Positions 19,599 through 44,404 are shown, numbered from the stretch's first letter. The stretch: DNA of 64,000 bases from Armatimonadota bacterium (GCA_041690135.1 JAWLHY010000016.1:32001-96000), one strand, 5' to 3'. Program-made: numbers and translations. The notes: generated by a model from the sequence alone, not told the origin.

Positions 19599-20050
19599 CT
19601 GTGTTACCTCCACCGTGCCGGCAGTTGGCGCCCAATACCAGGCTCCATTCCGCCGGAGATGAAAGGAATCCTGCCTCCAATCGCGGAGATGACGCCCGGC
19701 TTGCAGGCGGAAAGGGAACCCTGTACGACGGTGTTACGGAGTACGAGGCAGACTGCCGTGATTTTCGCAGCATTCAACCGCGACATGGGGAGTGCGGACT
19801 GAAAGAATAGAAGGGGTCGCGCCCGGTGTAAAGCGGGCAAGGCGGGTACCAACCGCAAACGGGGAATGACCGGGTGTTCGAATGGGAAACATGGTCTGTC
19901 CGGCGGTTCTATGTGTGTCGAGGATATTAGCGGGTGGAACCGCGCCTGCGGTGAGGCGGTCCAAACAGGGGGCGCCGCGGGAGGTCCCGGCGGGTCTAAT
20001 CTATGGCGGGGCGGATATTGGCCCAAAGGTGTGGGAGATCGGGAACCGGA

Positions 20051-21967
20051 ATGTCAAGCAGAATCAAACGGCCAATGCGTAGAAGGGTCCATGGAGTGGG
20101 TCTGGGAATCTCCCTTACTGCTCTCGCCCTGGCAGGGTTGAGCGCCTCCGCGCAGGAGCAGTCGCCAAGAACAGCACCGCCTCCGGTGTTGAACCTGCCG
20201 GCCCCCGCCAACGGTGCGGTGGCCCCCGCCAACGGCGCAGCTCCGGTCCGGCCGGTGGATCCGCTGTCGCAGGAGCTCTCGCTCGAGGTACGCAGCGCGA
20301 TCCTGGGAGAACTGACGGAGAAGCTGGCAGATTCGCTGAAGGTGGGATTGGATGTCGATCCGGACCTGGCCGGTCACAGCATCACCCTGCTGGCGGACGA
20401 GACGCAGGTAAGTGACCTCCAGAATGCCCTGAGCGCGCTGTTCGGTACCGGCTGGCAGAAGCGGGGAGAAGGCGCTGCGGCGCGATACTACCTGCCCCAG
20501 AACGCCGACCTGCAGTTGCGCGCGCAGGAGTTAATGAAAGAGCGCCGAACGCTCTTCCTGAACAACCTGCTGCAGACGGGCCGCGCCGTGCAGCAGCAGG
20601 GGGCGCCCACGGTAGCCCGCGATCTCCGGGCCGGAGTGGCGCGGCGTCTCACCTATCTTCCACAAGAAGAGGTGAACGAGATCTCCGCCGACTACGTGCG
20701 GCAAACCCTTTTGCTGGCGCCCCTGCCCCGCGGGATGGGAGCCGTGCTTACCCGCAGCGGCAGCGCCTGGACGCCTTTCCGCACATTGCCCGCGGCCTAT
20801 CAGCAACTCTTTGCTTCCTTTTTCGTGGAACAGTACCAGGCGGGCGGATCCGCATCTCAGGTCGTCGACGGCCGCTCTAATCCGCTGATCTTGAACTACC
20901 CGCAGGCCCGCCTGGAGTACCGGCTGTTGCACGGCGACCGCTGGACGGGGCCGCTGCTGTTGACGCGAGTGGGTGCCTCGGACAACTGGGCGAATTCATA
21001 CCTGCCCGCATCGCTGTACAACCTGCCGGATTATTCCACCCTCTACCCGGAAGTGGCGGAAAGACCCACCGGCCCGGAGGTGCGCCGGCCGCTCGAGATC
21101 CTCATCGACACGGAAAAGATGAACTGGGATCAGGCGCTGTTGCACCTGGCGCGCACGGCGAAGATCAATGTCCTGAGTGACGCCTTCCCGCGCCCCATGG
21201 TCTTCCGCCCGGCGGGTCGAGGGCCGATCATCGGCGGGACCGACGTGGGCCACACGCTGGACAGGCTTTGCGACTACTACGGCTACTTCTGGTGGAAGGA
21301 AGGGAACTTCTACCTCTTCCGCAACCGCCTGTGGGCGGAAGAAGAGAAGGTGGCGGTACCGCAGCGGGTACGCCAGCAGATCGGTCAGCGCCTGTCTCGC
21401 AGCAGCCGGCTGGCGACGCAAGACCTGATCTCCCTGGCCGCCCTCTCGGACGAGCAGCTTCTTTCCATGCGTCTCTACGGTGCGGCGGCAGGTGAGCCTT
21501 ATGCTCCGCCGGATGCTTTCGATTTCAACGAGATCCAGGTGGTTCGGGCCGGTTTGAACCTGTTGGGACAGATGAACGATGCCCAGCGGGAGCAGGCGCG
21601 CGCGGAAGGGCTGCCGTTCCTCCTGATGTCGCCTGCGCAGCAGTACATCTTCGCCTCCACCGCTTACGACCGCGGCCTGGTGCTGAATCCCGAAGAGTCC
21701 GACCAGTGGCGTATCCGCTTCAGCGACCATTTCGAGCGGCAACGGCTGCCCAGCGGATGGTCGGAAGTGGGCGAGCTCCGAGTCGACTTCCAGTACGGAG
21801 CGAATACGGCGCGGCGCGCGATTCTGCCGATCCGGGTCCCGGCGGCGGTGGCGCCCCCCGGAGCGGCTGCGGCGGCGGCGGCTCCCGTAGCAGAGACAAA
21901 AACCAGGCCTGTCGTATCCCCAAAGACGGAGATTGAGATCCCAAAGAGGGCTCCCGGTTCCCGGTGA
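20051..21967 (+). CDS. Large secreted hypothetical protein with two STN/secretin-N-like segments
   Basis: Signal peptide ending ASAQ; LSLEVRSAILGELTEKLA...L.ALFG..W and LEILID...WDQALLHLARTAKINVLSD...LDRLCDYYGYFW; GC-typical codon usage. Confidence 0.7.
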   Translation: MSSRIKRPMRRRVHGVGLGISLTALALAGLSASAQEQSPRTAPPPVLNLPAPANGAVAPANGAAPVRPVDPLSQELSLEVRSAILGELTEKLADSLKVGLDVDPDLAGHSITLLADETQVSDLQNALSALFGTGWQKRGEGAAARYYLPQNADLQLRAQELMKERRTLFLNNLLQTGRAVQQQGAPTVARDLRAGVARRLTYLPQEEVNEISADYVRQTLLLAPLPRGMGAVLTRSGSAWTPFRTLPAAYQQLFASFFVEQYQAGGSASQVVDGRSNPLILNYPQARLEYRLLHGDRWTGPLLLTRVGASDNWANSYLPASLYNLPDYSTLYPEVAERPTGPEVRRPLEILIDTEKMNWDQALLHLARTAKINVLSDAFPRPMVFRPAGRGPIIGGTDVGHTLDRLCDYYGYFWWKEGNFYLFRNRLWAEEEKVAVPQRVRQQIGQRLSRSSRLATQDLISLAALSDEQLLSMRLYGAAAGEPYAPPDAFDFNEIQVVRAGLNLLGQMNDAQREQARAEGLPFLLMSPAQQYIFASTAYDRGLVLNPEESDQWRIRFSDHFERQRLPSGWSEVGELRVDFQYGANTARRAILPIRVPAAVAPPGAAAAAAAPVAETKTRPVVSPKTEIEIPKRAPGSR

Positions 21968-21984
21968 GCCCAGGAGGAGGGCCG

Positions 21985-22731
21985 ATGACACATAGATTAA
22001 ATGCTTCGCTCGCGCTAGCCGCACTGCTGATCATCCCGGCCGCGGCCCAACAGGGCGATACTGACCGCCGCCCGGTGCCGACGTTGACCGTCAATGGCAC
22101 CGGGGAGATTCGTGTAGCACCCGACGAGGCCACGGTCCGCCTGGGGGTCACGCGCCAGGCGCCCACCGCGCAGGCGGCCCAGGAGCAGGTGAATCAGGTC
22201 GCCCAGGCGATCCTGACGGCGATCACCCGCCTCGGCATCCGGCGCGAGGACATCCAGACGTCGCAGTTGACGCTGTACCCGGTTTACGCCCCCCAGAACC
22301 CGCGCCAGCAGCAAGAAGAAGAACCGCGGATCGTCGCCTACCGGGCCTCCAACATCGTGTCCGTGCGTGTCGAGCGGTTGGGGCAGGTCGGTCCAGTGAT
22401 TGATGCCGGCCTTAAGGCAGGCGCCAACCAGCTCGAGGGGGTCTTCTTCAGCCTGCGGGACGACCTGCCGGCGCGCGAACGGGCGCTCCGCCAGGCCGTG
22501 CAGGAAGCCCGCCGCAAGGCTACAACGCTGGCCGAAGCCGCGGACGTGCGCCTCGACGGCATCCTGCAATTGGAAGAGGGCGGCGTCTCTATCCGACCGC
22601 TCGTCGTGCAGGAGCGAGCGGCGTTCGCCATGGCGGGTCGGGGCGGCGCGGATACCCCCGTGTCTCCCGGTGAGATCACCGTGAACGCCAGCGTAACGAT
22701 CCGGTACCGGATCACCGAAGGCCGGCGTTAA
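21985..22731 (+). CDS. SIMPL domain (DUF541) protein
   Basis: LTVNGTGEIRVAPDEATVRLGV, IQTSQLTLYP, ALRQAVQEARRKA..LA, PVSPGEITVNASVT. Confidence 0.92.
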   Translation: MTHRLNASLALAALLIIPAAAQQGDTDRRPVPTLTVNGTGEIRVAPDEATVRLGVTRQAPTAQAAQEQVNQVAQAILTAITRLGIRREDIQTSQLTLYPVYAPQNPRQQQEEEPRIVAYRASNIVSVRVERLGQVGPVIDAGLKAGANQLEGVFFSLRDDLPARERALRQAVQEARRKATTLAEAADVRLDGILQLEEGGVSIRPLVVQERAAFAMAGRGGADTPVSPGEITVNASVTIRYRITEGRR

Positions 22732-23725
22732 CGTCCGCTGTTAGAGATTGAACAGCTTCGACGGCCGTTTGGAAACGGGCGTCCCACGTGCCGCTGATGC
22801 GGACGTAGGGACGCCCCCTTGACTTCAGCTCGTGCTCGCAGCGGTCGAAGAAGGAACGGCGCTCTTCCGGAAGGTAGCGGATGACGTCCTCCACCCAGGG
22901 CACGTCCACGTCGGTCAGGAGATAGAGGTCGTACGTGCGGCGCTCGGCCTCCTCGCGGATCCATTCCTCGCAGGAGCCGAAGAGCACGTCGCTCCAGATG
23001 GTGGTGGTAAGCGGGTCCGTGTCGCAGAAGAGGAGGCGGTGGGCGCTGCGGGCGAGGGCGTCCTCCGAGGCGACCTGGCCGCGGACGATGCGTCCCATGT
23101 CCTCCAGGCGCACTTCGCCGTTCCGGGCTTCCAGGACCGTGCGGGCATACTCCGGAACGGCCACGGTGCCGAAGTGTTCCGCCAGTTGGCGCGTGAGGGT
23201 GCTCTTCCCCGTCGACTCCGGGCCGAAGACGCATACCCGCTTGACGAAGTAAGGGCGTACGCAGCGGGGCAGGTACTCCCAATTCGTCCAGGGGTCCTCG
23301 CGGATCGCCGTGCCGCTGACGGGGATAATAGATCGATCGATGTCCACGGGAACGAACTCCGCCCCCAGGATCTCGGCGAGCTTGTGCCCGTAATCTTCCG
23401 AGGCGAAGACGTAGTCCGGCTTCCAGGGGAGCACGCGCGTGAGGCTGTCGTACCAGATCTGCCAGAAGTCGGCGTGCTCGTGGGGGTACTGGGGGTTCTC
23501 ATCGGTCAGGTGGAGGACGCGGCAGTCCGGGAAAAGCTCCCGCATCCAGCCGTAGCGCAGGGCCCCAGGGATCGGTTCGGCCTGCAGGGTGCCGACCACG
23601 ATTGCCAGGTCCTCCACGTAGTTGCGCGCGAACTCCGCCAGGTACAGGTGCCCCAGATGCGGGGGCATGAACTTGCCGAGGAGCATTCCCCGGCCGGATT
23701 TGGGCAGCGTGTTGGGCGAGTTCAT
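22712..23725 (-). CDS. NadR-like cytidylyltransferase-family / P-loop kinase bifunctional protein (no HTH)
   Basis: GKFMPPHLGH (HxGH), FASEDYG, VSGTAIR, FGPESTGKST, VPEYAR, CDTD. ATG at 23725 overlaps the NRPS stop (ATGA). Confidence 0.88.
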   Translation of the reverse strand: MNSPNTLPKSGRGMLLGKFMPPHLGHLYLAEFARNYVEDLAIVVGTLQAEPIPGALRYGWMRELFPDCRVLHLTDENPQYPHEHADFWQIWYDSLTRVLPWKPDYVFASEDYGHKLAEILGAEFVPVDIDRSIIPVSGTAIREDPWTNWEYLPRCVRPYFVKRVCVFGPESTGKSTLTRQLAEHFGTVAVPEYARTVLEARNGEVRLEDMGRIVRGQVASEDALARSAHRLLFCDTDPLTTTIWSDVLFGSCEEWIREEAERRTYDLYLLTDVDVPWVEDVIRYLPEERRSFFDRCEHELKSRGRPYVRISGTWDARFQTAVEAVQSLTADVNAGLR

Positions 23726-26700
23726 CTTGTGGTCCGATGCTTGAGGCTTTGGCGCGCATAGAGTTGGAGCAGTTCCGGGGTGACCGGGGGGCACCGGATC
23801 CCGGATCCTGCCAGGGCGGCCTGGGTGTTGTCCACGGCAAACTCGGCGCCGGTGGACTGGAACAGGTCGAGTGTCCGCTGCCGCTGGAAGGCTGCGTCCC
23901 CCTCGGCAGAGCGGCAGAGGCTCAGGAAAGCGGTCGAGATCGCCTCGGCGCCGGCGGTGCTCCCGTGCCGCGCCACCCGCGCTCGCCACTCTGCCTCCCC
24001 TACCCGCTCCAGAGGAACCCCGGAGTCCCGCGCGGCGCAGATCAAGTCTTCGGCGGTGGCGCCGGTAGGATGGGCGATATGGAAGGTGGTGAGCCCCGGC
24101 CGTGGGTCGGCTCCAAGCGAGAGGTGAGCCATGGCCGCGGCGGCATAGTCCACGGGGGTGATATCGACCCGAAGATCGCTCCGAACCGCCTCGGGCACGC
24201 AGCCGAGGCGGGCCAGGCCGCGGAGGAACAGCCCCAACTGGTCGCGTTCCGGAGCGTATCCGGTGCGGGTATCGCCCGTGATAAGACCGAGGCGGTAAAC
24301 GGTCACACTGCGGAGCGCGGGTCGAGCCAGGCGGACGAGATGCTCTGCGGCCCACTTGCTCTGGCCGTAGCCGCCGTAGACCCATCCCGTTTCGGAAAGG
24401 TCGTCTCCCTCTTCCATGCGGCCGGTGTTCCGATCGGTGGAGACGAAGACGGAGAGGGTGGAGGCATAGTGCAGGTGCTTCGGCCTGCCTGCCGCCATCA
24501 ACCGCAGGATCTCGCCGGTGCCCCCCAGGTTGACTGGGCGCAACTGCTCGTAGGAATGGACCATGTTCACCCACGCGCCGCAGTGGTGGACCGTGTCCAC
24601 CTCCGCGCAAAGGCTTTCCCATGCGGCCGGGGGCAATCCCAGATACGGTTGGGTCAGGTCTCCACACAGGGGAGCGACGCGCGCCCATGCCGCCGGCGGG
24701 AGGTGCACCCCGTGCCGCTCCACGGCCTCCCGGATACGGGCCAGCCCAGCTCCTTCCTCTTCCGCGCGCACCAGGCACCGGACCTGGGCGTCCGTCCGGT
24801 GGAGTAGCTCATACAGGAGGCGCGAGCCCAGGAAGCCCGTGGCGCCCGTCAAGAGACGGACGGGCAACCCGGAGCGGCTAATGGGTGGGTGCAAGTAACT
24901 GGGCAGGTGCTGTTTCCCAGAGGGGGGCCGACACCCGCTCCCGCGGGTACCCGGCGCCGTCACTCCGGCAAGGCTCGCCGATCTGGGTGAAGAGACAGGA
25001 TCGTGCCCAGCGGTCAAGAACTGTTCAGATACTTCCCCCCACCCCACAGTAGCAGTCAACTCCAGTTTGCGGAGGTACTCCTCTACCTCCTCTCGTAACC
25101 GGGCGGCGGTCATTCCGCCCCAGGTTTCCGGCGTGGTCTCCTCGGTGGTCCCCGTGATGGCCGCGATGGTCCGGTCCCGGATCACCTGGGCGGGCGAGAG
25201 GGGCAGGCCGCGCGCCTCGGCCAGGGCCGCGATCCGCAGCACGGCCAGAGAGTCGCCGCCCAGATCGAAGAAGTCGTCGTCGATCCCGATAACAGGCCGC
25301 TCGAGTACCTCCCGCCAGATCTCCGCGAGTTGCTGCTGCCGCGGCGTGGTCACGGTGGTGCGGAGTGATATCGCTGCAACTGCTGCCAGATCGAGGTGAG
25401 ATAGTGCCTCCAGGTCGGTCTTTCCCGTGCGGGTGACCGGAAGCCGGTCGAGAAACCGGAAGAGTTGCGGCACCATCCAGGGCGGGAGCAATGCCTGAAG
25501 GTGGGCGCGCAGATCCCTCTCACTCGGGACGGCGGCGGTAGGAACCACAAACGCGACCAGCCCCTCGCGGTCTGCTCCGATGGGTCGTTTCAGGACAGCG
25601 GCCTGGCGTACGTCCGGGTGTTTGAGGAGGCAGGCTTCGACTTCCTCGGGCGCCACCAGTTGGCCACGGACCTTCACCTGACGGTCGGTCCGCCCGAGGT
25701 ACTCCAGGTCCCCGTCCGGATGCCGGACCACGCGGTCCCCAGTCCGGTAGAGGCGCTCCCCTTCCACCGTGAGGAAGCGAGACGCCGTCAGTTCCGGACG
25801 GTTCACGTACCCCCGTGCCAGGCCGATCCCGCCGATGAAGAGCTCCCCCGCTACGCCGGGTGGGACCGGCTGGAGGGCTTCGTCCAGCACCTGGAAGGTG
25901 ACGTTGGGCAATGGCTCGCCAAGGAGCGGGCGGTGCCAACGGTCCGCGTCACAAAGGCAGAGGCTGGCGCAGACGGTCGCCTCGGTAGGCCCGTAGACGT
26001 TGACCACCCGGCATCGTTGCGCCCACCGCCGGACCACTTCCGGAGGGCACGGTTCGCCGCCGATGACCAGGGTCTCCAGGCAAGCGGGTGCTACGTCGGG
26101 GTCCAACAGTGGCAACAGCGAGGGCGGGAGGTCCAGGTGTGTGATCCGGCGACGGCCCAGAATGCGGATCAGGTCGGCGGCAATCTCCGCAGGGGGACCG
26201 GGCTCGATGCAGAGCGTGGCGCCGGAGAGCAGCGCTGTGCCGATGTCGGAGACCGAGGCGTCGAAACTGGGCGACAGCAGCCAGAGGGCGCGAGCCCCCG
26301 GACGCAGCCCGAATGCGGGGATCTGGCCGTCGAGGAGGTTCACGATGCCTCGATGCGGCACCATCACGCCCTTGGGCGTTCCGGTCGAACCGGAGGTGTA
26401 GATGATATAGGCCAGGTCCTCGGCAGCGGGCGAGGCAAGTGCCGGGGTGGAACCATCGTCCTCCGGATCTGCCGCGCTCCCGACGAGAACCTGCGGGACA
26501 CCAAGGCGGCCCAGCGGACAGGCGACGCCCTCACTGGTGAGAAGCAGACGCACGTCTCCGTCGCGCACCATGAATGCCCGGCGCTCCGGCGGCAGCGCCG
26601 GGTCCAGCGGCAGGAAGGCACCGCCGGCATACCATACGGCGAGCATGCCGACCAGGTAGTCCGCGGACTTTGGCAGGGCGAGCGCGACTACCGTTTCCCG

Positions 26701-26850
26701 GCCGACACCGGTGGCTCGAAGGCGGCGCGCCAGGAGGGAAGCACGTTGATCTAACTCGCGGTATGTCAGGATGGTCGTCCCATCTTCCACCGCAGGTAGG
26801 CCCCGCAGCCGGGATACGACTTGCCGGAAGCGCTGCGTGAAGTGGCTCAT
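23722..26850 (-). CDS. NRPS-like adenylation-thiolation-reductase (A-T-R) protein
   Basis: A cores LTYRELD, YTSGSTGTPKG, FDAS, NVYGPTE, YRTGD, TGK; T domain FFDLGGDSL; R domain TGATGFLGS and YGQSK. Confidence 0.93.
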   Translation of the reverse strand: MSHFTQRFRQVVSRLRGLPAVEDGTTILTYRELDQRASLLARRLRATGVGRETVVALALPKSADYLVGMLAVWYAGGAFLPLDPALPPERRAFMVRDGDVRLLLTSEGVACPLGRLGVPQVLVGSAADPEDDGSTPALASPAAEDLAYIIYTSGSTGTPKGVMVPHRGIVNLLDGQIPAFGLRPGARALWLLSPSFDASVSDIGTALLSGATLCIEPGPPAEIAADLIRILGRRRITHLDLPPSLLPLLDPDVAPACLETLVIGGEPCPPEVVRRWAQRCRVVNVYGPTEATVCASLCLCDADRWHRPLLGEPLPNVTFQVLDEALQPVPPGVAGELFIGGIGLARGYVNRPELTASRFLTVEGERLYRTGDRVVRHPDGDLEYLGRTDRQVKVRGQLVAPEEVEACLLKHPDVRQAAVLKRPIGADREGLVAFVVPTAAVPSERDLRAHLQALLPPWMVPQLFRFLDRLPVTRTGKTDLEALSHLDLAAVAAISLRTTVTTPRQQQLAEIWREVLERPVIGIDDDFFDLGGDSLAVLRIAALAEARGLPLSPAQVIRDRTIAAITGTTEETTPETWGGMTAARLREEVEEYLRKLELTATVGWGEVSEQFLTAGHDPVSSPRSASLAGVTAPGTRGSGCRPPSGKQHLPSYLHPPISRSGLPVRLLTGATGFLGSRLLYELLHRTDAQVRCLVRAEEEGAGLARIREAVERHGVHLPPAAWARVAPLCGDLTQPYLGLPPAAWESLCAEVDTVHHCGAWVNMVHSYEQLRPVNLGGTGEILRLMAAGRPKHLHYASTLSVFVSTDRNTGRMEEGDDLSETGWVYGGYGQSKWAAEHLVRLARPALRSVTVYRLGLITGDTRTGYAPERDQLGLFLRGLARLGCVPEAVRSDLRVDITPVDYAAAAMAHLSLGADPRPGLTTFHIAHPTGATAEDLICAARDSGVPLERVGEAEWRARVARHGSTAGAEAISTAFLSLCRSAEGDAAFQRQRTLDLFQSTGAEFAVDNTQAALAGSGIRCPPVTPELLQLYARQSLKHRTTR
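24882..25046. mobile_element. ~165-bp MITE/REPIN-like element inserted in frame in the NRPS T-R linker
   Basis: Imperfect terminal inverted repeats GGGTGCAAGTAACTGGGCAG / CTGTTCAGATACTTCCCCCC; 52-bp core 24924-24975 identical to 44281-44332. Confidence 0.8.
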
Positions 26851-27612
26851 TTACGGCTTCCGGGCCACCAGGATGCACCGCGAACAATCGAGTGTGAACG
26901 GACGACCGTCGACGGCCCCATACAGCTCCACCTCCACGAAACCGCAGCTCTCCAGCAGCCTGCGGAGCTCGTGCGGCAGATACATCTTGGTGCGGCTGGT
27001 CTTCCGGTGCTCCCGACCGTCCGGTGCCGTGTAACTCCAGACCTGCTCGATCATGCCGGTGAGGAAATCCGGAGTGGCGGCGCGGGTCACTTCCGTCTCG
27101 CCGTAACGGGTGCCGTAGCGGAGACGGACCGCCGGCTGGAACTCGCGGAGCAGGCGGGGCGTGCTGTAGTAGTCCAGGGCGAACCGTCCCCCGGGGCGCA
27201 GCGCTTCGAAGGCACGCCGGAGCATCTCCCGGTTGCGGGCGTCCTCGGAAGCGTAGCCGAAGCTGGACCACCAGTTAAAGGCGCCGTCACACGGGCGCTC
27301 CGGTAGGAACCGGAAAGAGTCGCCCACATAGAACTCGCAGGAGAGCTCCGCCGCCCGTGCCTGTTCCTCCGCGCGCCGGATGTAGTTGGCTGCCAGGTCC
27401 ACACCGATCGTGCGCATCCCCAGCCTGGCCAGCGGCAGGCTCATCCGGCCGAGGCCGCAGCCCTGATCGAACACAGTGTCACCGGCTCGCAGCTCCAACT
27501 TCCGGACGAGAAACTCCGCTGCTTCCGTCGCGCCTGCATCGTCCTCGGCGATAGCCATTACCACGTCCGCGAAGGTATCGTCGTAGAACCCTTCCCACCA
27601 ATCGGCACTCAC
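26851..27612 (-). CDS. Class I SAM-dependent methyltransferase
   Basis: VFDQGCGLGR, GVDL, WWSSFGY, ALRPGGRF. Confidence 0.92.
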   Translation of the reverse strand: MSADWWEGFYDDTFADVVMAIAEDDAGATEAAEFLVRKLELRAGDTVFDQGCGLGRMSLPLARLGMRTIGVDLAANYIRRAEEQARAAELSCEFYVGDSFRFLPERPCDGAFNWWSSFGYASEDARNREMLRRAFEALRPGGRFALDYYSTPRLLREFQPAVRLRYGTRYGETEVTRAATPDFLTGMIEQVWSYTAPDGREHRKTSRTKMYLPHELRRLLESCGFVEVELYGAVDGRPFTLDCSRCILVARKP

Positions 27613-27624
27613 ATCCCGCTCCTT

Positions 27625-28515
27625 TCAGGCAGTCGCGGCCAGGGCGGCGGCCGTGGGTATAGGCAGAACGACACCCTCGGGAAGGCGGTAGTCGATCAGC
27701 GCAGTGCCGGTGGACCGGTTATCGGCATTGGGAGCCCCGATGCCGGCGGCGTAATCCCCCAGGTGCACCGTGCGAAAATCGATGCTGAACCGGGTGCGCC
27801 CCGTCTCGTTGGCCAGGGTGCGGTGCAACTGTGCCCCCGCGAAGACCAGTAGATCTCCCGCCCGGCACGAGAAGCCGAAGGAACGCGCGCCTGCGAGGTC
27901 ACCACGGAAGCCCGGGTAGAGAGCTTCCGTGCCGGCGTTCCGATCCTGCCAGCCGATCCGCAGACTGCGACGGTCGCGGATCCAGGTGTCGTAATCGAAC
28001 GCTTCCGAGTCGTTCTCCACGGGACGGTCGAGGTAGTCCGGATAAAAGACGAAGGTCTCCGCTTCGTCGACGTCGTGCAAGGGGATCCACCAACTGATCT
28101 GACTCTGGGGATGCGAATACCAGGTGTCCCGGTGTGTGTAGTAGATGGGCGCCGCCTGGGGAATGCGATGAGCCCCATCCGCTATGACCCGCATCCGCAG
28201 CGGGTCCAGCGCATTCTCTTCCGGCCGGAACCCAAAGCTGGAAATGATCTCCCCGATGGCGGTGAAGAAGCGGTCTTCCTGGTAGAGCCGCTTGCGCAGC
28301 CGGCCGATCGCCTGGAAGAACTCGTCACCGGACAGGCGGAACTGCGCCTCCCGAGCCGGGCCGTCCTGGCCCAACTCCGCTTCGACGAGACCGCCGACCT
28401 CACCCACCAGGCGCTCCGTGACCGGCGTGCGGTCGAGCAGAAGAACCGTTCCGTTGTAGATCGCATTCCGAAAGCTATGCTCGTCTTCCGGTGCGTGGCG
28501 TTGGATCTGGACCAT
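27625..28515 (-). CDS. Putative 2OG-Fe(II) dioxygenase (PhyH-like jelly-roll)
   Basis: HRD...WWIPL...GDLLVF...LHRT...TRFSIDFR: HxD...H triad plus RxS motif. Confidence 0.65.
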   Translation of the reverse strand: MVQIQRHAPEDEHSFRNAIYNGTVLLLDRTPVTERLVGEVGGLVEAELGQDGPAREAQFRLSGDEFFQAIGRLRKRLYQEDRFFTAIGEIISSFGFRPEENALDPLRMRVIADGAHRIPQAAPIYYTHRDTWYSHPQSQISWWIPLHDVDEAETFVFYPDYLDRPVENDSEAFDYDTWIRDRRSLRIGWQDRNAGTEALYPGFRGDLAGARSFGFSCRAGDLLVFAGAQLHRTLANETGRTRFSIDFRTVHLGDYAAGIGAPNADNRSTGTALIDYRLPEGVVLPIPTAAALAATA

Positions 28516-28527
28516 CGTTCTCTCCTC

Positions 28528-30441
28528 TCAGTACAGCCCTAACCGTTGCTGAAGAATGCCTGTACAGAGCACCGTCATCAGCACCGGGTCGGCGGCGGCG
28601 CGTTCCTGGGGCGATAAGGTGGGAAGGCGGTCGAGCCACTGTCGGAGTTTTCGCCCATCGAAGAACGGGACCGCGGGTGCGAGGGTCCGAAGCTGCTCCT
28701 CCAGGCGTGCCCCGACTTGCGGATTGCTGAAGCGACACAGGGGTGGCGCCAGGAACGGATGTTTCTCCCGGCGGTACACCGTATCCGTCAGCACCGGCCG
28801 GGCTGCTTCGCGCAGGACGTACTTTTCCACACCGCCGCGAACTTTCATACTCATTGGCATCTCGCGTATGAGTCCGGCGAGGGGGTGATCGAGGAACGGC
28901 ACCCGGCCCTCGACCGAATGCGCCATTTCCGTGCCGTCCCCCAGGGTGCGCAGGATGTAGTTCGCCAGAGCCGTCTTATTCCACAGGTAGAGGGACTGGT
29001 CTACGCGGCTACGGCCCGACAGTTGGCCCTCGACATCCGTCGCGGCGAGCAAGTCCGCGAAGGCATCGCGACCGCCGTGCTCCGCAAGGAAGTCCTCGGA
29101 GAGGACCTGGCGCATCCGGTGGCCGAAGGTCGCCTTGGCTTCCAGGAAGGTCGGTACGAAGCCGAGCCGGGAGCGGACCGACTCCAGCGGGAGTCCATCG
29201 CCGTGCGGCAGCATGATCCCCGCCGAGACCGTGTTGGTGGCAGCGAGGCGCTTCAGCACGCCCCCCTCGTCTGGCGTGTCGCTCTCTCCTACCATCAGGT
29301 CGCGTCGCAGGTGGGCGTAACCGGCCAGGATCTCGTCGGAGCCCTCTCCCGTCAGCACGACCTTGTAGCCGGCCCGCCGGATGGCGCGGGAGAGCAGAAA
29401 TTTCGCGGGAAGGTGACCGTTGATGGCCAGGCCCTCGCAGAAGGAGACCGCCTCGGGAAGGCACTCCACCAGGTCTTCCTGGGATACCCGCACCTCTTGG
29501 AGGACCGCACCCGCGCGCCGGGCGGTTTCCGCGGCGATAGCCAGTTCATCGTACGGGGCGGTATCGAAGCTCACGGTGAAGCAGTGCACCGGCGCGGAGC
29601 TGAGGCGGGCGGCAAACCCCAGGACCGCGCTGGAGTCCAGGCCCCCACTGAGGTGACATGCCACGGGCACGTCGGCCCGGAGCCGCAGCCGGACGGCCTC
29701 CTCCAGGCCCGCCCGGAACCGGTCAATCTGCTCCGCCTCCGAGGCCGGGCCGTCCGCTTTCTCACGCGGATAGTCGAGGTCCCAGTAGCGAGCGGTGCGC
29801 AGAGTATCCTCTTCCTGCAAGAGGTAGTGCCCCGGTGGAAGCTGCCGGACGTTCCGGAAGAGCGTGCGCTGGGGCAGCACATACTGCAGGGTGGCCGCAT
29901 GGAAGAAGGATTCCGGGTCCCACGCCGCCTCGGTTCCGGAGGCGAACAGCGCCTTCGCCTCGGAGGCTACTCGCAGCGTGCTCCGCTGCACGGAGTAGTA
30001 GAGTGGCTTGATCCCGAACCGGTCCCGAGCCGCGAAGAGGCGTTTCCGCCGCTCGTCCCAGAGCACGAACGCGAACTCCCCCCGCAAATACTCGAGGCAG
30101 TCCAGGCCATGCTCTTCGTAGAGGTGTACCAGGATCTCGCTGTCGCTTCCGGTCCGAAACCGGTGGCCCCGTTCCTGGAGCCGGCGGCGAATGCGCTCGA
30201 AGTCGTAGAACTCTCCATTGACGACCGCCTGGACCTGCCCGTCTTCGCTGGCAAGCGGCTGGGCGCCGCCCTGCAGGTCGATGATGCTCAGCCGGGCATG
30301 GGCCAGGCCGACGCTCCCATCCGGCGACAACCAAACCCCCTGCCCGTCCGGCCCCCGGTGGCGCATCATCCCCAGTGCCTTCTGCAGGGATTCAGGTTCG
30401 ACTGCGCTGTTCTGTGATTGGATGGCGATAATACCGCACAT
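28528..30441 (-). CDS. asnB: Asparagine synthase (glutamine-hydrolysing)-type amidotransferase
   Basis: MCGI N-terminal nucleophile, HRGPDG, RDRFGIKPLY, LSGGLDSS, VLTGEGSDE, EGRVPFLD. Confidence 0.9.
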   Translation of the reverse strand: MCGIIAIQSQNSAVEPESLQKALGMMRHRGPDGQGVWLSPDGSVGLAHARLSIIDLQGGAQPLASEDGQVQAVVNGEFYDFERIRRRLQERGHRFRTGSDSEILVHLYEEHGLDCLEYLRGEFAFVLWDERRKRLFAARDRFGIKPLYYSVQRSTLRVASEAKALFASGTEAAWDPESFFHAATLQYVLPQRTLFRNVRQLPPGHYLLQEEDTLRTARYWDLDYPREKADGPASEAEQIDRFRAGLEEAVRLRLRADVPVACHLSGGLDSSAVLGFAARLSSAPVHCFTVSFDTAPYDELAIAAETARRAGAVLQEVRVSQEDLVECLPEAVSFCEGLAINGHLPAKFLLSRAIRRAGYKVVLTGEGSDEILAGYAHLRRDLMVGESDTPDEGGVLKRLAATNTVSAGIMLPHGDGLPLESVRSRLGFVPTFLEAKATFGHRMRQVLSEDFLAEHGGRDAFADLLAATDVEGQLSGRSRVDQSLYLWNKTALANYILRTLGDGTEMAHSVEGRVPFLDHPLAGLIREMPMSMKVRGGVEKYVLREAARPVLTDTVYRREKHPFLAPPLCRFSNPQVGARLEEQLRTLAPAVPFFDGRKLRQWLDRLPTLSPQERAAADPVLMTVLCTGILQQRLGLY

Positions 30442-30454
30442 AGTTCGGGTATGA

Positions 30455-31405
30455 CTAGGAGGCGTTGCTGTGGGAGAGGGTCAGGAATACCTTCTTCGCT
30501 TCTCGACCGGAGGCGGCGGCAAAGGCTTCCTGGTAGGCCGCGAGGGGGTAGACCGGCCCCAACAGGTCTTCCAGTTCGAGCCCTCCGCCCGCCGCCAGAT
30601 CCAGGGCCGAGGAGAAGGGGGCGTAGTTCACCGCGTGAAAGGTGACTTCTTTCAGGACGGCGGCACGGAGGTCGAGGGCCACCGGTTGACAGGGACGACT
30701 TTTGAGCACCACTTTCCCGCCGGGACGCACCGCCCGTAACACGAAGTCCAGCGCGCTCTCCGTGGCCACAGTTTCCACCACAAAATCAAAGGAAGAATCT
30801 TCGACTTCATACGCGGATATACAAGGGTCATACGCGACCACGTCCGGGAAGCCCTGCGACTTGAGCAGAGTGAGGGTGAGTTGCGCGATGCGATTGTCGC
30901 CGTAGATGAGCCCGCGCGCGTTCGGTTGGAAACCGGCCTTCAGGACCGCCAGCGACGCCGCAATCGGTTCTGCATAAGCGGCCAGGGTGGCGGGTAGCTT
31001 TGGCGGGACAACGTACGCGTTCCGCTCCGGCACAACGACGTACTCCGCGAAGGCGCCGTCCAGGTCCACACCCAGCATGCGTGGATGGAGGCAGCGGAGC
31101 GCCGTGCCGAAGTCCGAGCAGCAGCCCCGGCACGTCCCGCACTCGATCCACGGCATTACCGCGACCCGATCGCCCACGGTCACCTTTCGGACCTGCTCCC
31201 CTACCCTCTCGACCACGCCGGAAAACTCGTGGCCGAGGATGAGCGGCTCCGGACCGGGCAGGCGTCCTTCCGCGGCATAAAGGTCCGTCCGGCAGATTCC
31301 GGCGACCTCCACGCGGATTAACACGTCATCCACGGCCCGAACCTCCGGTGGAGGCACCTCATTAAGGGTCGTCTTTCCACCGCTGCGAATTACTGCCTGC
31401 ATCAT
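30455..31405 (-). CDS. Zinc-binding alcohol dehydrogenase (MDR family)
   Basis: GICRTD, GHEFSG, structural Zn site CGTCRGC...C, GAFAEY. Nucleotide-binding loop is atypical (IYGDNRIA). Confidence 0.88.
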   Translation of the reverse strand: MMQAVIRSGGKTTLNEVPPPEVRAVDDVLIRVEVAGICRTDLYAAEGRLPGPEPLILGHEFSGVVERVGEQVRKVTVGDRVAVMPWIECGTCRGCCSDFGTALRCLHPRMLGVDLDGAFAEYVVVPERNAYVVPPKLPATLAAYAEPIAASLAVLKAGFQPNARGLIYGDNRIAQLTLTLLKSQGFPDVVAYDPCISAYEVEDSSFDFVVETVATESALDFVLRAVRPGGKVVLKSRPCQPVALDLRAAVLKEVTFHAVNYAPFSSALDLAAGGGLELEDLLGPVYPLAAYQEAFAAASGREAKKVFLTLSHSNAS

Positions 31406-31445
31406 CCCCACCTTCGGCGCTCCTGCTCCTGGTCGTTTATCGGCC

Positions 31446-31553
31446 AATCGCGGTGAGCACACGATACCCCAATCGCGGGAGCCGTGTCCGCGATTTCGGC
31501 GTGCTGCTCCTCTGCTTTAGGATGCGGCAGGCGGCGTGACGGCAGCGTGACGG
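31446..31553. promoter_or_regulatory. Repeat motifs upstream of the biosynthetic operon
   Basis: AATCGCGG at 31446 and 31471 plus inverted copy CCGCGATT at 31488; GCGTGACGG direct repeat at 31534 and 31545 (11-bp period). Confidence 0.45.
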
Positions 31554-31580
31554 GCAGGAGGTGGGGAGCGTAACCGGGGG

Positions 31581-33014
31581 TCAGGATGCGGCTAATTCAC
31601 CCAGGCGGGCGAGGGCGGCTTCTACTTCGGGGGTCCAGCAGGAGGCGTTCAGGCGGAGGAAGTTGCGGTAGGCGCCCTTGGGGGAGAAGATGGGGCCGGG
31701 AGCGAAGGTGATGCCTTCTTTCAGGGCTCGCTGGTAGAGGTGCAGGGCATCGATCTGGGGCGGCAGCTCAACCCACACGATAAACCCGCCCTCGGGCCGG
31801 GTGGCGCGGGTGCCGGCGGGGAAGTAGCGTCGCACCGCCTGTGCCACTAGGCCCACCTGCCGGGCGTAGATGGCCGTCACCCGGCGGAGATACCGCTCGT
31901 AACCGCCGGCACCCAGGTACTCGGCGATGGCGAGCTGGGGCAGCGTGGCCGTGGAGAGGCTGTGGCAGAACTTGAGGTGCTCCACCTGCCGGAAGAAGCG
32001 GCCGGGCGCCACCCACCCCACCCGGTAGCCGGGGGTGAGCGTCTTGCTGAAGGAGGAGCAGAGCATCACCAGGCCTTTCCGGTCCCAGGCGCGAGCGACT
32101 TTCGGCCGTGGGGTGCGATGGGAGAGGTCCCCGTAAATATCGTCTTCGATAAGAGGGATTTCACGCCTCGCCAGCATCTCGACCAGCTCGGCCCGCGCTT
32201 CGTCCGGCATGCATGCCCCCGTGGGGTTGTTGAAGTTGGCGATCAGGCAGGCGCGGATCGGGTGGTGATCCAGGGCGTAACGGAGGGTGTCGAGGTTGAT
32301 CCCGGTGCGCGGATGCGTGGGTAGTTCCAGGGCCTTCAGTCCGAGGGCCTCGATCGCCTGGAGGATCCCGTAGAAGGTGGGAGATTCGATCGCCACCGTG
32401 TCCCCCGGACGACAAACGGCCTGGAGGCAGATTACCATGGCTTCCTGGCAGCCAAAGGTGGTGACGATCTCCTCCGGGCGGAGCTCGCAACCTGACGCAA
32501 GTGCCCGGCGCGCGATCTGGACCCGCAGTTGTTTGCATCCGGGCGGAACGTCGTAAGACATGCCGCCGCCCTCCACATCGCGCGAGAGGTTGTGCAGCAG
32601 GCGGTTCAGCTTCTCGCTCGGCAACAGGCTCATATTGGGCACCGTGGCCGCCAACTGCACGAGGCCGGCACAGGCGGTGTCCTTGAGCACCCGCAGGCAG
32701 AGCTCTCCCATCGTGACCTGAGTCGGATCGAGATCCGGCTTCGAGCAAGCGGGCTCCGCGGGTCGCTCCGTTACCCGCGGTGCGACAAAGTAGCCGGACT
32801 GCGGGCGAGCCTCAATCCAGCCGTCACTCTCCAGTAGGCGGTATGCCTCGAGCACAGTCGTGATGCTCACGGCCCGCTGCCGGCTCTGGTCCCGCACGGA
32901 CGGGAGGCGGTCGCCGGGACGGAGCGTCCCCTCCTGGATCAATCGCAGGATCTGGTCGGCGATCTGCTGGTAGAGGGTTTCCGCGGAAGAGAGAGTAGTG
33001 AGTGGGCTCGCCAT
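31581..33014 (-). CDS. MocR/GntR-family regulator with PLP-dependent aminotransferase domain
   Basis: LYQQIADQI...LRPGDRLPSVR...VSITTVLEAY..LE..GWIEARPQSGYFV; IEDDIY; SSFSKTLTPGYRVGW. Confidence 0.93.
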   Translation of the reverse strand: MASPLTTLSSAETLYQQIADQILRLIQEGTLRPGDRLPSVRDQSRQRAVSITTVLEAYRLLESDGWIEARPQSGYFVAPRVTERPAEPACSKPDLDPTQVTMGELCLRVLKDTACAGLVQLAATVPNMSLLPSEKLNRLLHNLSRDVEGGGMSYDVPPGCKQLRVQIARRALASGCELRPEEIVTTFGCQEAMVICLQAVCRPGDTVAIESPTFYGILQAIEALGLKALELPTHPRTGINLDTLRYALDHHPIRACLIANFNNPTGACMPDEARAELVEMLARREIPLIEDDIYGDLSHRTPRPKVARAWDRKGLVMLCSSFSKTLTPGYRVGWVAPGRFFRQVEHLKFCHSLSTATLPQLAIAEYLGAGGYERYLRRVTAIYARQVGLVAQAVRRYFPAGTRATRPEGGFIVWVELPPQIDALHLYQRALKEGITFAPGPIFSPKGAYRNFLRLNASCWTPEVEAALARLGELAAS

Positions 33015-44238: not shown

Positions 44239-44404
44239 GAGGGGCGCGTGCAAGTGACTGGACAGGTACGGATCCCCACAGGGGCCGACACCCGCTCCCG
44301 CGGGTACCCGGCGCCGTCACTCCGGCAAGGCTTGCAGACCTGAGTGGAGAATCAGGCTCGTGCCCAGTGGTCGAAATCTGTTCAGTTACTTCCCCCATCC
44401 CCTC
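44239..44404. mobile_element. Intergenic copy of the ~165-bp MITE/REPIN-like element
   Basis: Terminal inverted repeats GAGGGGCGCGTGCAAGTGACTGGACAG / CTGTTCAGTTACTTCCCCCATCCCCTC; 52-bp core identical to 24924-24975. Confidence 0.8.

Follow-up and report, generated by a model that had tools for sequence, protein, structure and literature searches.

We analyzed a stretch of 64,000 nucleotides from an Armatimonadota bacterium (GCA_041690135.1, JAWLHY010000016.1:32001-96000), hereafter the window, whose source genome is denoted G000. The window contains a cassette of six intact minus-strand open reading frames (ORFs) at positions 22712-31405, which joins a nonribosomal peptide synthetase (NRPS)-like reductase with a NadR-like kinase/adenylyltransferase. 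The first gene, ADH (30455-31405), encodes a Zn-dependent medium-chain dehydrogenase that is threonine-dehydrogenase-like and has an altered nucleotide-binding motif (ADH_N, E 1.9e-28). It is followed by AsnB (28528-30441), a glutamine-hydrolysing amidotransferase (Asn_synthase, E 5.6e-74; GATase_7, E 2.3e-44), by OXY (27625-28515), a PhyH-type Fe(II)/2-oxoglutarate oxygenase of an unnamed family identified by a weak PhyH match and a structural model, and by MT (26851-27612), a class I S-adenosylmethionine-dependent methyltransferase (Methyltransf_25, E 1.1e-13). The fifth gene, ATR (23722-26850), encodes a stand-alone NRPS-like enzyme in which an adenylation (A) domain (approximately 25420-26826; AMP-binding, E 3.2e-80), a carrier (T) domain (approximately 25153-25335; PP-binding, E 8.7e-13) and a thioester reductase (R) domain (approximately 23746-24855; NAD_binding_4, E 2.6e-58) were found. 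The last gene (22712-23725) encodes a NadR-like bifunctional enzyme without a helix-turn-helix (HTH) domain (AAA_28, E 1.5e-38), which consists of a nicotinamide mononucleotide (NMN)-adenylyltransferase-like half (approximately 23276-23692) and an AAA_28 ribosylnicotinamide-kinase-like half (approximately 22775-23239).

The six genes are separated by 13, 12, 12, 0 and -4 bp. An earlier note on this DNA had described six same-strand genes with exactly these gaps; our ORF list reproduced the figures, and the domain labels of that note match the Pfam and NCBIfam calls. The start of ADH was placed at ATG 31405, where the orthologues begin aligning, and the longest ORF opens at GTG 31462. The NadR-like frame is open up to 24778; because its orthologues align only from residue 9-13 onward, its start was placed at ATG 23725, which shares the sequence ATGA with the ATR stop codon, and not further upstream. 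Scans of the locus for consensus promoters and terminators returned no more matches than shuffled sequence. Judged from spacing and synteny only, the six genes probably form an operon.

To describe the conservation of the cassette, loci were reached through OXY alone. A relative of OXY was encoded by 204 of 237 candidate stretches, drawn from one-genome-per-species contigs; the best 80 were kept, and the six window proteins were run against them by tblastn. All locus counts below are conditional on OXY and include related genomes that are not independent, and the taxon labels are those of the record titles. The earlier note had named a lack of co-occurrence in other genomes as one of two results that would refute it, and the co-occurrence proved to be strong: all six genes were present in 43 of the 80 loci. 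Where 8 kb or more of sequence was available on both sides of OXY (36 loci), 29 loci had six genes, four had a four-gene form and three had fewer. The six genes lay on the same strand in 37 of the 43 loci and spanned 7.6-10.6 kb, with a median of 8.4 kb. The commonest order was ADH-AsnB-MT-OXY-ATR-NadR (29 loci), and the order of the window, with OXY before MT, had a single instance among the 43. It recurs in G002, which belongs to the family of the window genome and was not added to the 80. The pairs ADH-AsnB, MT-OXY and ATR-NadR remained adjacent through these changes of order.

The 43 six-gene loci were labeled as Myxococcota (15), Planctomycetota (12), Verrucomicrobiota (6), Acidobacteriota (3), Pseudomonadota (3), Cyanobacteriota/Melainabacteria (2) and other taxa (2), so that, by record title, at least six phyla carry the cassette. 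It is also found in cultured strains, such as Stieleria magnilauensis, Sulfidibacter corallicola and Acanthopleuribacter pedis. The NadR-like enzyme was the best conserved protein, with a median identity of 60% to the window protein, and the corresponding value for ATR was 39%. When OXY alone was used as the query, the six genes were also recovered from G002 and from a metagenome-assembled genome (MAG) of an alphaproteobacterium. Within the family of the window, OXY and the NadR-like gene were found only in G000 and G002; neither was detected in the other five genomes, whose completeness is 69-98%. We compared the flanks of 58 loci holding at least MT, OXY, ATR and NadR and found that they were not conserved; the six genes therefore travel as a module. 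In our preferred explanation, they are a single biosynthetic cassette, complete in itself, that has spread horizontally and is linked to NAD metabolism.

The four-gene form was found at six loci (L011, L042, L054, L066, L098 and L102), assigned by title to Acetobacteraceae and Burkholderiaceae. Here, an MT-OXY pair faces, on the opposite strand, the series NadM/Nudix-NadV-A-(T)R-NadR, in which A and R are separate proteins. AsnB and ADH are missing from this form. A DUF2330 protein was also observed upstream of MT in three of the six loci (L054, L098 and L102).

The most direct connection between ATR and the NadR-like enzyme was revealed by gene fusions. A search with the NadR-like query for longer proteins (E <= 1e-20) returned 56 protein clusters, 31 of which carry AMP-binding, NAD_binding_4 and AAA_28 in a single protein. 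Nine of these A-T-R fusions cover the whole of NadR, and 22 cover mainly the kinase half. The remaining clusters comprised one R+NadR fusion, one NadR+MT fusion, whose MT half shares 42% identity with that of the window, one PnuC-NadR fusion, one longer NadR and 21 DUF4301-kinase proteins. Two fusions were read directly from DNA and confirmed by Pfam: locus L040 encodes a 1225-residue A-T-R-NMNAT-kinase protein (NMNAT, NMN adenylyltransferase), and locus L013 encodes a 1117-residue A-T-R-kinase protein followed by a separate full NadR. Additionally, a fused protein from a Legionella sp. MAG aligns with the window ATR across A, T and R at 36-39% identity. No other evidence argues as strongly as these fusions for a shared pathway of ATR and the NadR-like kinase, in which they probably catalyze consecutive steps. 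The 21 DUF4301 clusters (P0156-P0176) are proteins of approximately 700 residues that combine DUF4301 with an AAA_28 kinase domain of the NadR type. They have no relation to the cassette, the named ones come from Flavobacteriia-type genera, and they represent another unexplained partner of the NadR-type kinase.

The neighborhood of the cassette also pointed to NAD metabolism. The only recurrent families in the flanks of the 58 loci were NAD-related, namely NrtR, NadV and NadM-Nudix. In seven loci, an NrtR-type regulator, which combines a Nudix domain with a winged helix of the NrtR kind, is the direct neighbor of the cassette, and in an eighth it is found at a distance of 3.4 kb; the record titles assign these eight loci to Myxococcota, Acidobacteriota and Verrucomicrobiota. 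NadV and NadM-Nudix occur together in five four-gene loci, and NadV is near two six-gene loci. NrtR is described as a repressor of NAD genes that is released by ADP-ribose (PMC2330246). The words "methyltransferase", "dioxygenase" and "Myxococc" do not occur in that paper. Candidate 21-bp GT-N7-AC palindromes were found only in L038, L064 and L103, and this is weak evidence, its sole background being a window-wide count of one site. Two of the candidate NrtR operators (L064, 3550-3570 and 3657-3677) are located where NrtR and the first cassette gene diverge, with a background check that was rough.

G000 holds matches to NadA, NadC, NadD and NAD synthase (NadE), and NadA and NadC are also present in four family members. 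In view of these genes, the notion that the cassette replaces de novo NAD synthesis was rejected; it is an accessory to the standard pathway. The same genome holds one NadR-family gene, that of the cassette, and one NrtR, on contig C7. PnuC (PF04973), the ribosylnicotinamide (NR) transporter that usually accompanies NadR, was found in none of five carrier genomes (G000, G002, G041, G042 and G043), and the control search found it in 4 of 14 reference genomes. Given the lack of PnuC in these five genomes, the cassette does not appear to be an uptake-salvage system, and salvage of exogenous NR is unlikely.

We next consider the ATR enzyme. Both TIGR01733 and TIGR01746 matched ATR above their cut-offs; its best NCBIfam match was MxcG, far under the cut-off of that model. 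The translation contains GGDS in the carrier domain and the TGxTGFLG and YxxxK motifs, as expected of an A-T-R enzyme. The A-domain pocket positions were located through the conserved core motifs, following the usual numbering convention. The pocket consists of Asp235, Ala236, Ser239, Asp278, Val/Ile/Leu299, Gly301, mostly Val322, Val/Ile330, Cys331 and Lys517, and these ten residues are near-invariant in 55 of 55 orthologues, with Ala at 239 in one. In the four-gene form, the separate A proteins have an overall identity of only approximately 33%, yet their pocket is nearly the same. This near-identity points to the same substrate in all carriers, one that would be available even where AsnB and ADH are absent. 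Presumably, Asp235 marks the substrate as an α-amino acid rather than a pyridine acid. Compared with known specificity codes, the pocket is nearest to Gln/Glu (8 of 10 positions), followed by Lys and one Tyr type (7 of 10), which is a lead rather than a prediction. As exact strings, the pocket code had no occurrence in the full-text literature searched. The earlier note had seen no phosphopantetheinyl transferase (PPTase), the partner of a carrier domain, and none lies in the window; one ACPS-family match exists elsewhere in G000, however (contig C3, 84 bits, 249-residue frame).

The NadR-like enzyme scored 298.5 bits against TIGR01526, below the equivalog cut-off of 341.15. Residues 12-334 align with the solved NadR structures 8x7f (E 1.5e-40), 1lw7 and 9x6f; 6gye also matches, and both catalytic halves carry intact motifs. 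We compared the enzyme with Bas30_86, the NadR-like enzyme of the phage NARP3 system, for which functional residues including a Tyr (Y86) that packs on NAD+ have been named (PMC13464706). Most of the named residues have kept equivalents, namely K10, F11, H18, P84, F110, S112, D115, E230 and D275. At the position equivalent to Y86, a Tyr is present in just 4 of 54 cassette sequences, and the surrounding loop has a conserved motif of its own. Loops vary also among NadR homologues outside the cassette, and we therefore discarded this loop as a marker of a new substrate.

Among the remaining enzymes, ADH is closest to the solved L-threonine 3-dehydrogenase 2dq4 (E 3.4e-37). Its Zn ligands, Cys/His-Glu/Glu, are kept in 48 aligned sequences, and G-x-x-R-I-A stands at the GxGxxG position across the family. 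The cofactor domain (ADH_zinc_N) scored 24.9 bits, under the cut-off of 31.8. AsnB scored 446 bits against TIGR01536, for which the cut-off is 267, and its translation shows the N-terminal Met-Cys and the SGGxDS PP-loop that define the family. With the N-terminal Cys and the PP-loop kept, AsnB is expected to convert a carboxylate into a carboxamide at the expense of glutamine. The earlier note had named both amides and lactams as products of AsnB homologues in biosynthetic clusters; the amide is now favored, and a lactam-forming AsnB is unlikely in view of the retained Cys.

OXY scored 19.6 bits against PhyH, under the Pfam cut-off of 22, and a profile search of the sequences of solved structures returned nothing below E 0.69. 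In contrast to these weak scores, H128, D130, H231 and R242, corresponding to the iron triad and the 2-oxoglutarate Arg, are invariant in 26 homologues. The predicted model has a pLDDT (predicted local distance difference test) score of 90, and the fold search gave PtlH as the best match, with a Z-score of 15.6 and a root mean square deviation (rmsd) of 4.0 over 232 residues; human PhyH followed with a Z-score of 13.0. On the strength of the invariant residues and of the fold, a double-stranded β-helix, the assignment of OXY as a PhyH-type Fe/2-oxoglutarate oxygenase was confirmed. A halogenase was excluded, as the family has HxD and not HxG/A. Most of the 374 homologues of OXY are labeled hypothetical protein or are unnamed, and some are labeled PhyH or ectoine-hydroxylase-related dioxygenase. 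In the Protein Atlas, only "PhyH family" labels were found for OXY. The nearest solved chains to MT are 9ri2 (E 2e-20), the bacillithiol N-methyltransferase NmbA (PMC12719100), and phosphoethanolamine N-methyltransferases. The nearest solved relatives of MT are thus N-methyltransferases that act on primary amines, including phospho-ethanolamine.

From the conserved module, the fusions, the NAD neighborhood, the invariant pocket and the intact catalytic motifs, all of which were observed, we propose a pathway. Its substrate and product, the sequence of its reactions, the end point of the reduction (aldehyde or alcohol) and the function of the product are inferred. The A domain, with its invariant pocket, would activate one specific polar α-amino acid, which would be loaded onto the T domain and released reductively by the R domain, most likely down to an amino alcohol. 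The kinase half of the NadR-like enzyme, coupled to ATR as the fusions reveal, would then phosphorylate the primary alcohol, and the NMNAT-like half would transfer AMP from ATP. The resulting ADP-linked amino alcohol would be a dinucleotide-like analogue of NAD or ADP-ribose. OXY and MT, whose genes are almost constant neighbors, would introduce a hydroxyl and a methyl group, the latter probably on nitrogen; given the NadR+MT fusion and the relatives of MT, methylation may take place at the stage of the phosphate ester. AsnB would use Gln to amidate a carboxylate, yielding a carboxamide, and the Zn-dehydrogenase would oxidize or reduce a hydroxyl or carbonyl group. We speculate that the fixed gene pairs reflect OXY oxidizing a methyl group set by MT, with ADH and AsnB carrying this group on to the carboxamide. 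For the whole route, from amino acid through alcohol and phosphate ester to an adenylylated, NAD/ADP-ribose-like dinucleotide, we consider the chances to be about even.

The interpretation given in the earlier note was partly supported. Reductive release followed by phosphorylation and nucleotidylation gained support from the A-T-R fusions to the NadR-like kinase, and the substrate, the product and the order of the tailoring steps stay at the level of proposals. The suggestion of a cofactor mimic, likewise, is strengthened by the NAD genes adjoining the cassette. The product may act as an antimetabolite, an inhibitor of NAD- or ADP-ribose-using enzymes, an alternative cofactor or a signal. One specific version, which we regard as tentative and on the whole unlikely, is an NAD+/ADP-ribose analogue built by NRPS logic, in which the "ribosyl-nicotinamide" part stems from an amino acid. 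For example, the five carbons of a Glu/Gln-type substrate could replace the ribose carbons, with the reduced C1 as the 5'-hydroxyl and the α-nitrogen as the ring heteroatom, and a carboxamide or amidine made by AsnB would carry the charge. If true, such an analogue without the normal N-glycosidic bond could be an NADase-resistant cofactor or a transition-state-like inhibitor of NAD- and ADP-ribose-processing enzymes, and its synthesis would, in some lineages, be wired to the ADP-ribose sensor NrtR.

Several points weigh against the proposed pathway. The case is built on sequence and comparative evidence, and every locus count depends on OXY and includes related, non-independent genomes. The amino-acid assignment is a lead, as it was taken from a comparison of codes rather than from a predictor, and an aldehyde and an alcohol as the end point of the R domain are not separable by sequence. 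The loop difference around the Y86 equivalent is weak evidence for a new substrate; the NadR-like enzyme keeps the motifs and most contacts of true NR-kinase/NMN-adenylyltransferases and may simply make NAD. In the window itself, no NrtR was found and no GT-N7-AC palindrome was detected upstream of ADH (31380-31620). Furthermore, the ATR linker of the window carries a repeat insertion that may affect the function of the enzyme.

The alternatives were weighed against the same observations. A canonical role for the NadR-like enzyme, from NR through NMN to NAD, with the other five enzymes supplying a pyridine precursor, would make the cassette a new salvage route or side branch, in which AsnB might, for example, amidate a nicotinate-type carboxylate; we consider this improbable. 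It agrees with the conserved NadR motifs and most of the contact residues and with the NrtR, NadV and NadM-Nudix genes adjoining the cassette, and AsnB and NAD synthetase are generally known to share PP-loop amidotransferase logic. It also agrees with the lack of PnuC matches, as NR would then have to arise inside the cell. Against it, the six genes include no ribosyl- or phosphoribosyltransferase, and we could derive no convincing route from an α-amino aldehyde to a 3-carboxamido-pyridine or nicotinamide. The pocket residue Asp235 presumably speaks for an α-amino acid and not for a pyridine acid. The kinase fused straight behind the R domain argues that the ATR product itself is phosphorylated, and NadA, NadC, NadD and NadE are already available in G000.

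Somewhat more doubtful is the possibility that the amino aldehyde from ATR cyclizes or dimerizes to a heterocycle (cyclic imine, pyrazine or pyridone), giving a nicotinamide-like base or antimetabolite. The NadR-like enzyme would in that case serve self-resistance, activation of the compound or upkeep of NAD in the producer; the ATR-kinase, R-NadR and MT-NadR fusions, however, suit consecutive steps better than resistance. Single-module A-T-R enzymes often give cyclizing amino aldehydes, and AsnB could install a carboxamide of the nicotinamide type. The four-gene form sits with NadV, a handler of free base, but the six-gene form has no enzyme that would ribosylate a base.

Still less probable, in our judgment, is an ADP-linked amino alcohol that serves as an activated head group, following a CDP-choline-like logic, and is passed on to a lipid or glycan, the enzyme for this transfer being encoded outside the cassette region. 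Neither a transferase nor a membrane protein recurred around the 58 loci, and the neighbors that do recur are NAD genes, not envelope genes; set against this are the likeness of MT to phosphoethanolamine N-methyltransferases, the existence of the NadR+MT fusion and the succession of kinase and nucleotidyltransferase, which mirrors the Kennedy and Lic pathways. Finally, a chance packing of six unrelated neighbors, with which only the uninformative promoter and terminator scan agrees, has a negligible probability and is refuted, as far as the comparative evidence goes, by the co-occurrence and order conserved across phyla, the non-conserved flanks and the multiple independent fusions.

The preferred reading, that of an amino acid reduced, phosphorylated and adenylylated by the cassette, was then compared with known systems. 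The NadR/PnuC system for NR salvage, known from E. coli, H. influenzae and L. lactis and from Bas30_86/87 of the phage NARP3 system (PMC13464706), employs the same two-domain family, and solved NadR structures were matched at E 1e-20 to 1e-40. The cassette enzyme differs in that it has no HTH, scores below the TIGR01526 cut-off and has a different loop at the NAD-stacking Tyr; moreover, the partner with which its gene is coupled or fused is an NRPS-like reductase and not a transporter, and PnuC was found in none of the five carriers searched. The NadV-NadM/Nudix salvage genes under NrtR (PMC2330246) are found beside the cassette in five loci (NadV and NadM-Nudix) and in seven to eight loci (NrtR). 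They are neighbors and not members of the cassette, however, and are absent beside the window copy. An NRPS-like enzyme amid cofactor-type genes, as here, is also reported for hybrid clusters that combine NRPS-like enzymes with cofactor biosynthesis or take cofactors as building blocks (an NRPS-like/pteridine cluster, PMC5384830; a review, PMC9516700). Their cofactor family and enzymes differ from those of the cassette, and no homology is claimed.

The architecture of ATR is the same as that of A-T-R reductive-release enzymes such as MxcG of myxochelin, Lys2 and the carboxylic acid reductases. CmlP of chloramphenicol biosynthesis is also counted among these enzymes. The cassette pocket code differs from theirs in being absent from print in the exact-string searches, and we know of no A-T-R enzyme of the MxcG, Lys2, carboxylic acid reductase or CmlP kind that is coupled to a kinase/adenylyltransferase. 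Phospho-base activation proceeds through choline/ethanolamine kinase, phosphoethanolamine N-methyltransferase and a cytidylyltransferase (CCT), and the fungal glycine-betaine reductase ATRR feeds choline. The logic proposed here is alike, leading from an alcohol through a phosphate ester and N-methylation to a nucleotide diester, and the relatives of MT are shared. In contrast, the kinase and nucleotidyltransferase of the cassette belong to the NadR family and not to choline kinase or CCT, an oxygenase, an amidotransferase and a dehydrogenase are added, and the regions around the 58 loci revealed no transferase partner.

We found no description of the six-gene set in the full-text literature searched, a search that covered papers and not MIBiG clusters; to this extent, the claim of the earlier note that the gene combination is not a recognized pathway was supported. 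No paper in that literature held "NadR", "adenylation domain" and "reductase domain" together. In the PADLOC models, five of the six proteins had no match and MT matched only a generic methyltransferase-domain model (mad2), and a known anti-phage defence system was dismissed for want of PADLOC support. Each enzyme is thus of a known family; as far as these searches reach, what is new is the conserved and repeatedly fused partnership of an NRPS-like reductase with a NadR-type kinase/adenylyltransferase. We rate the cassette as a reductive-release NRPS-like cluster with nucleotide activation. The link to the NAD regulon, the fusions, the invariant pocket, the four-gene variant and the repeat inside the ATR gene go beyond the earlier note.

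The proposed pathway would imply a family of adenylylated, amino-acid-derived metabolites in approximately 200 species-level genomes, from bacteria of soil and water as well as predatory and host-associated ones. If the product is an NAD/ADP-ribose analogue built from an amino acid, it would represent a new class. A product that mimics NAD or ADP-ribose would be relevant to current questions on how NAD is depleted when bacteria are in conflict, on natural compounds that inhibit ADP-ribosyl enzymes and on redox cofactors outside the canonical set. Three features make the proposal directly testable: the A-domain pocket is invariant, the cassette is small (approximately 8.4 kb) and some of its carriers are in culture.

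The repeat in the window ATR is a MITE-like (miniature inverted-repeat transposable element-like) dispersed element of approximately 170 bp with terminal inverted repeats (24877-25051, no strand assigned), which lies in frame in the T-R linker. The 40 matches listed in G000 are the locus itself and 39 others at 71-90% identity, and a second window copy lies at approximately 44242-44402. Five aligned copies show the inverted ends, and the predicted folding of the repeat was no better than that of shuffles (z -1.0). As a result of the insertion, residues 601-650 or thereabouts (approximately 50 residues) are unique to the window protein and absent from its orthologues, and the T-R linker is 138 residues long in the window compared with 74-115 in 32 orthologues measured.

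Other genes near the cassette or elsewhere in the genome were also recorded. A MocR-type regulator with a GntR HTH and an aminotransferase-like domain (31581-33014, minus strand; Pfam GntR and Aminotran_1_2) is separated by 175 bp from the ADH start at 31405 and lies upstream of it. It is not conserved and was rejected as a member of the cassette, as no tblastn homologue was found beside related cassettes (E 1e-5; E 1e-10 in 86 loci). Outside the window, the region G000:C1:984000-998000 has at least five adenylation-domain ORFs in a row and thus represents a multi-gene NRPS region. At G000:C4:346629-349023, an AMP-binding enzyme (561-residue frame), which shares 32% identity with the A domain of ATR, immediately precedes an NAD-synthase-family match. 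On the other side of the cassette, a plus-strand ORF of 654 residues without a Pfam match (20003-21967) is followed by a SIMPL/DUF541 protein (21964-22731, plus strand), and the 3' end of the SIMPL gene converges with that of the NadR-like gene, overlapping it by 20 bp.

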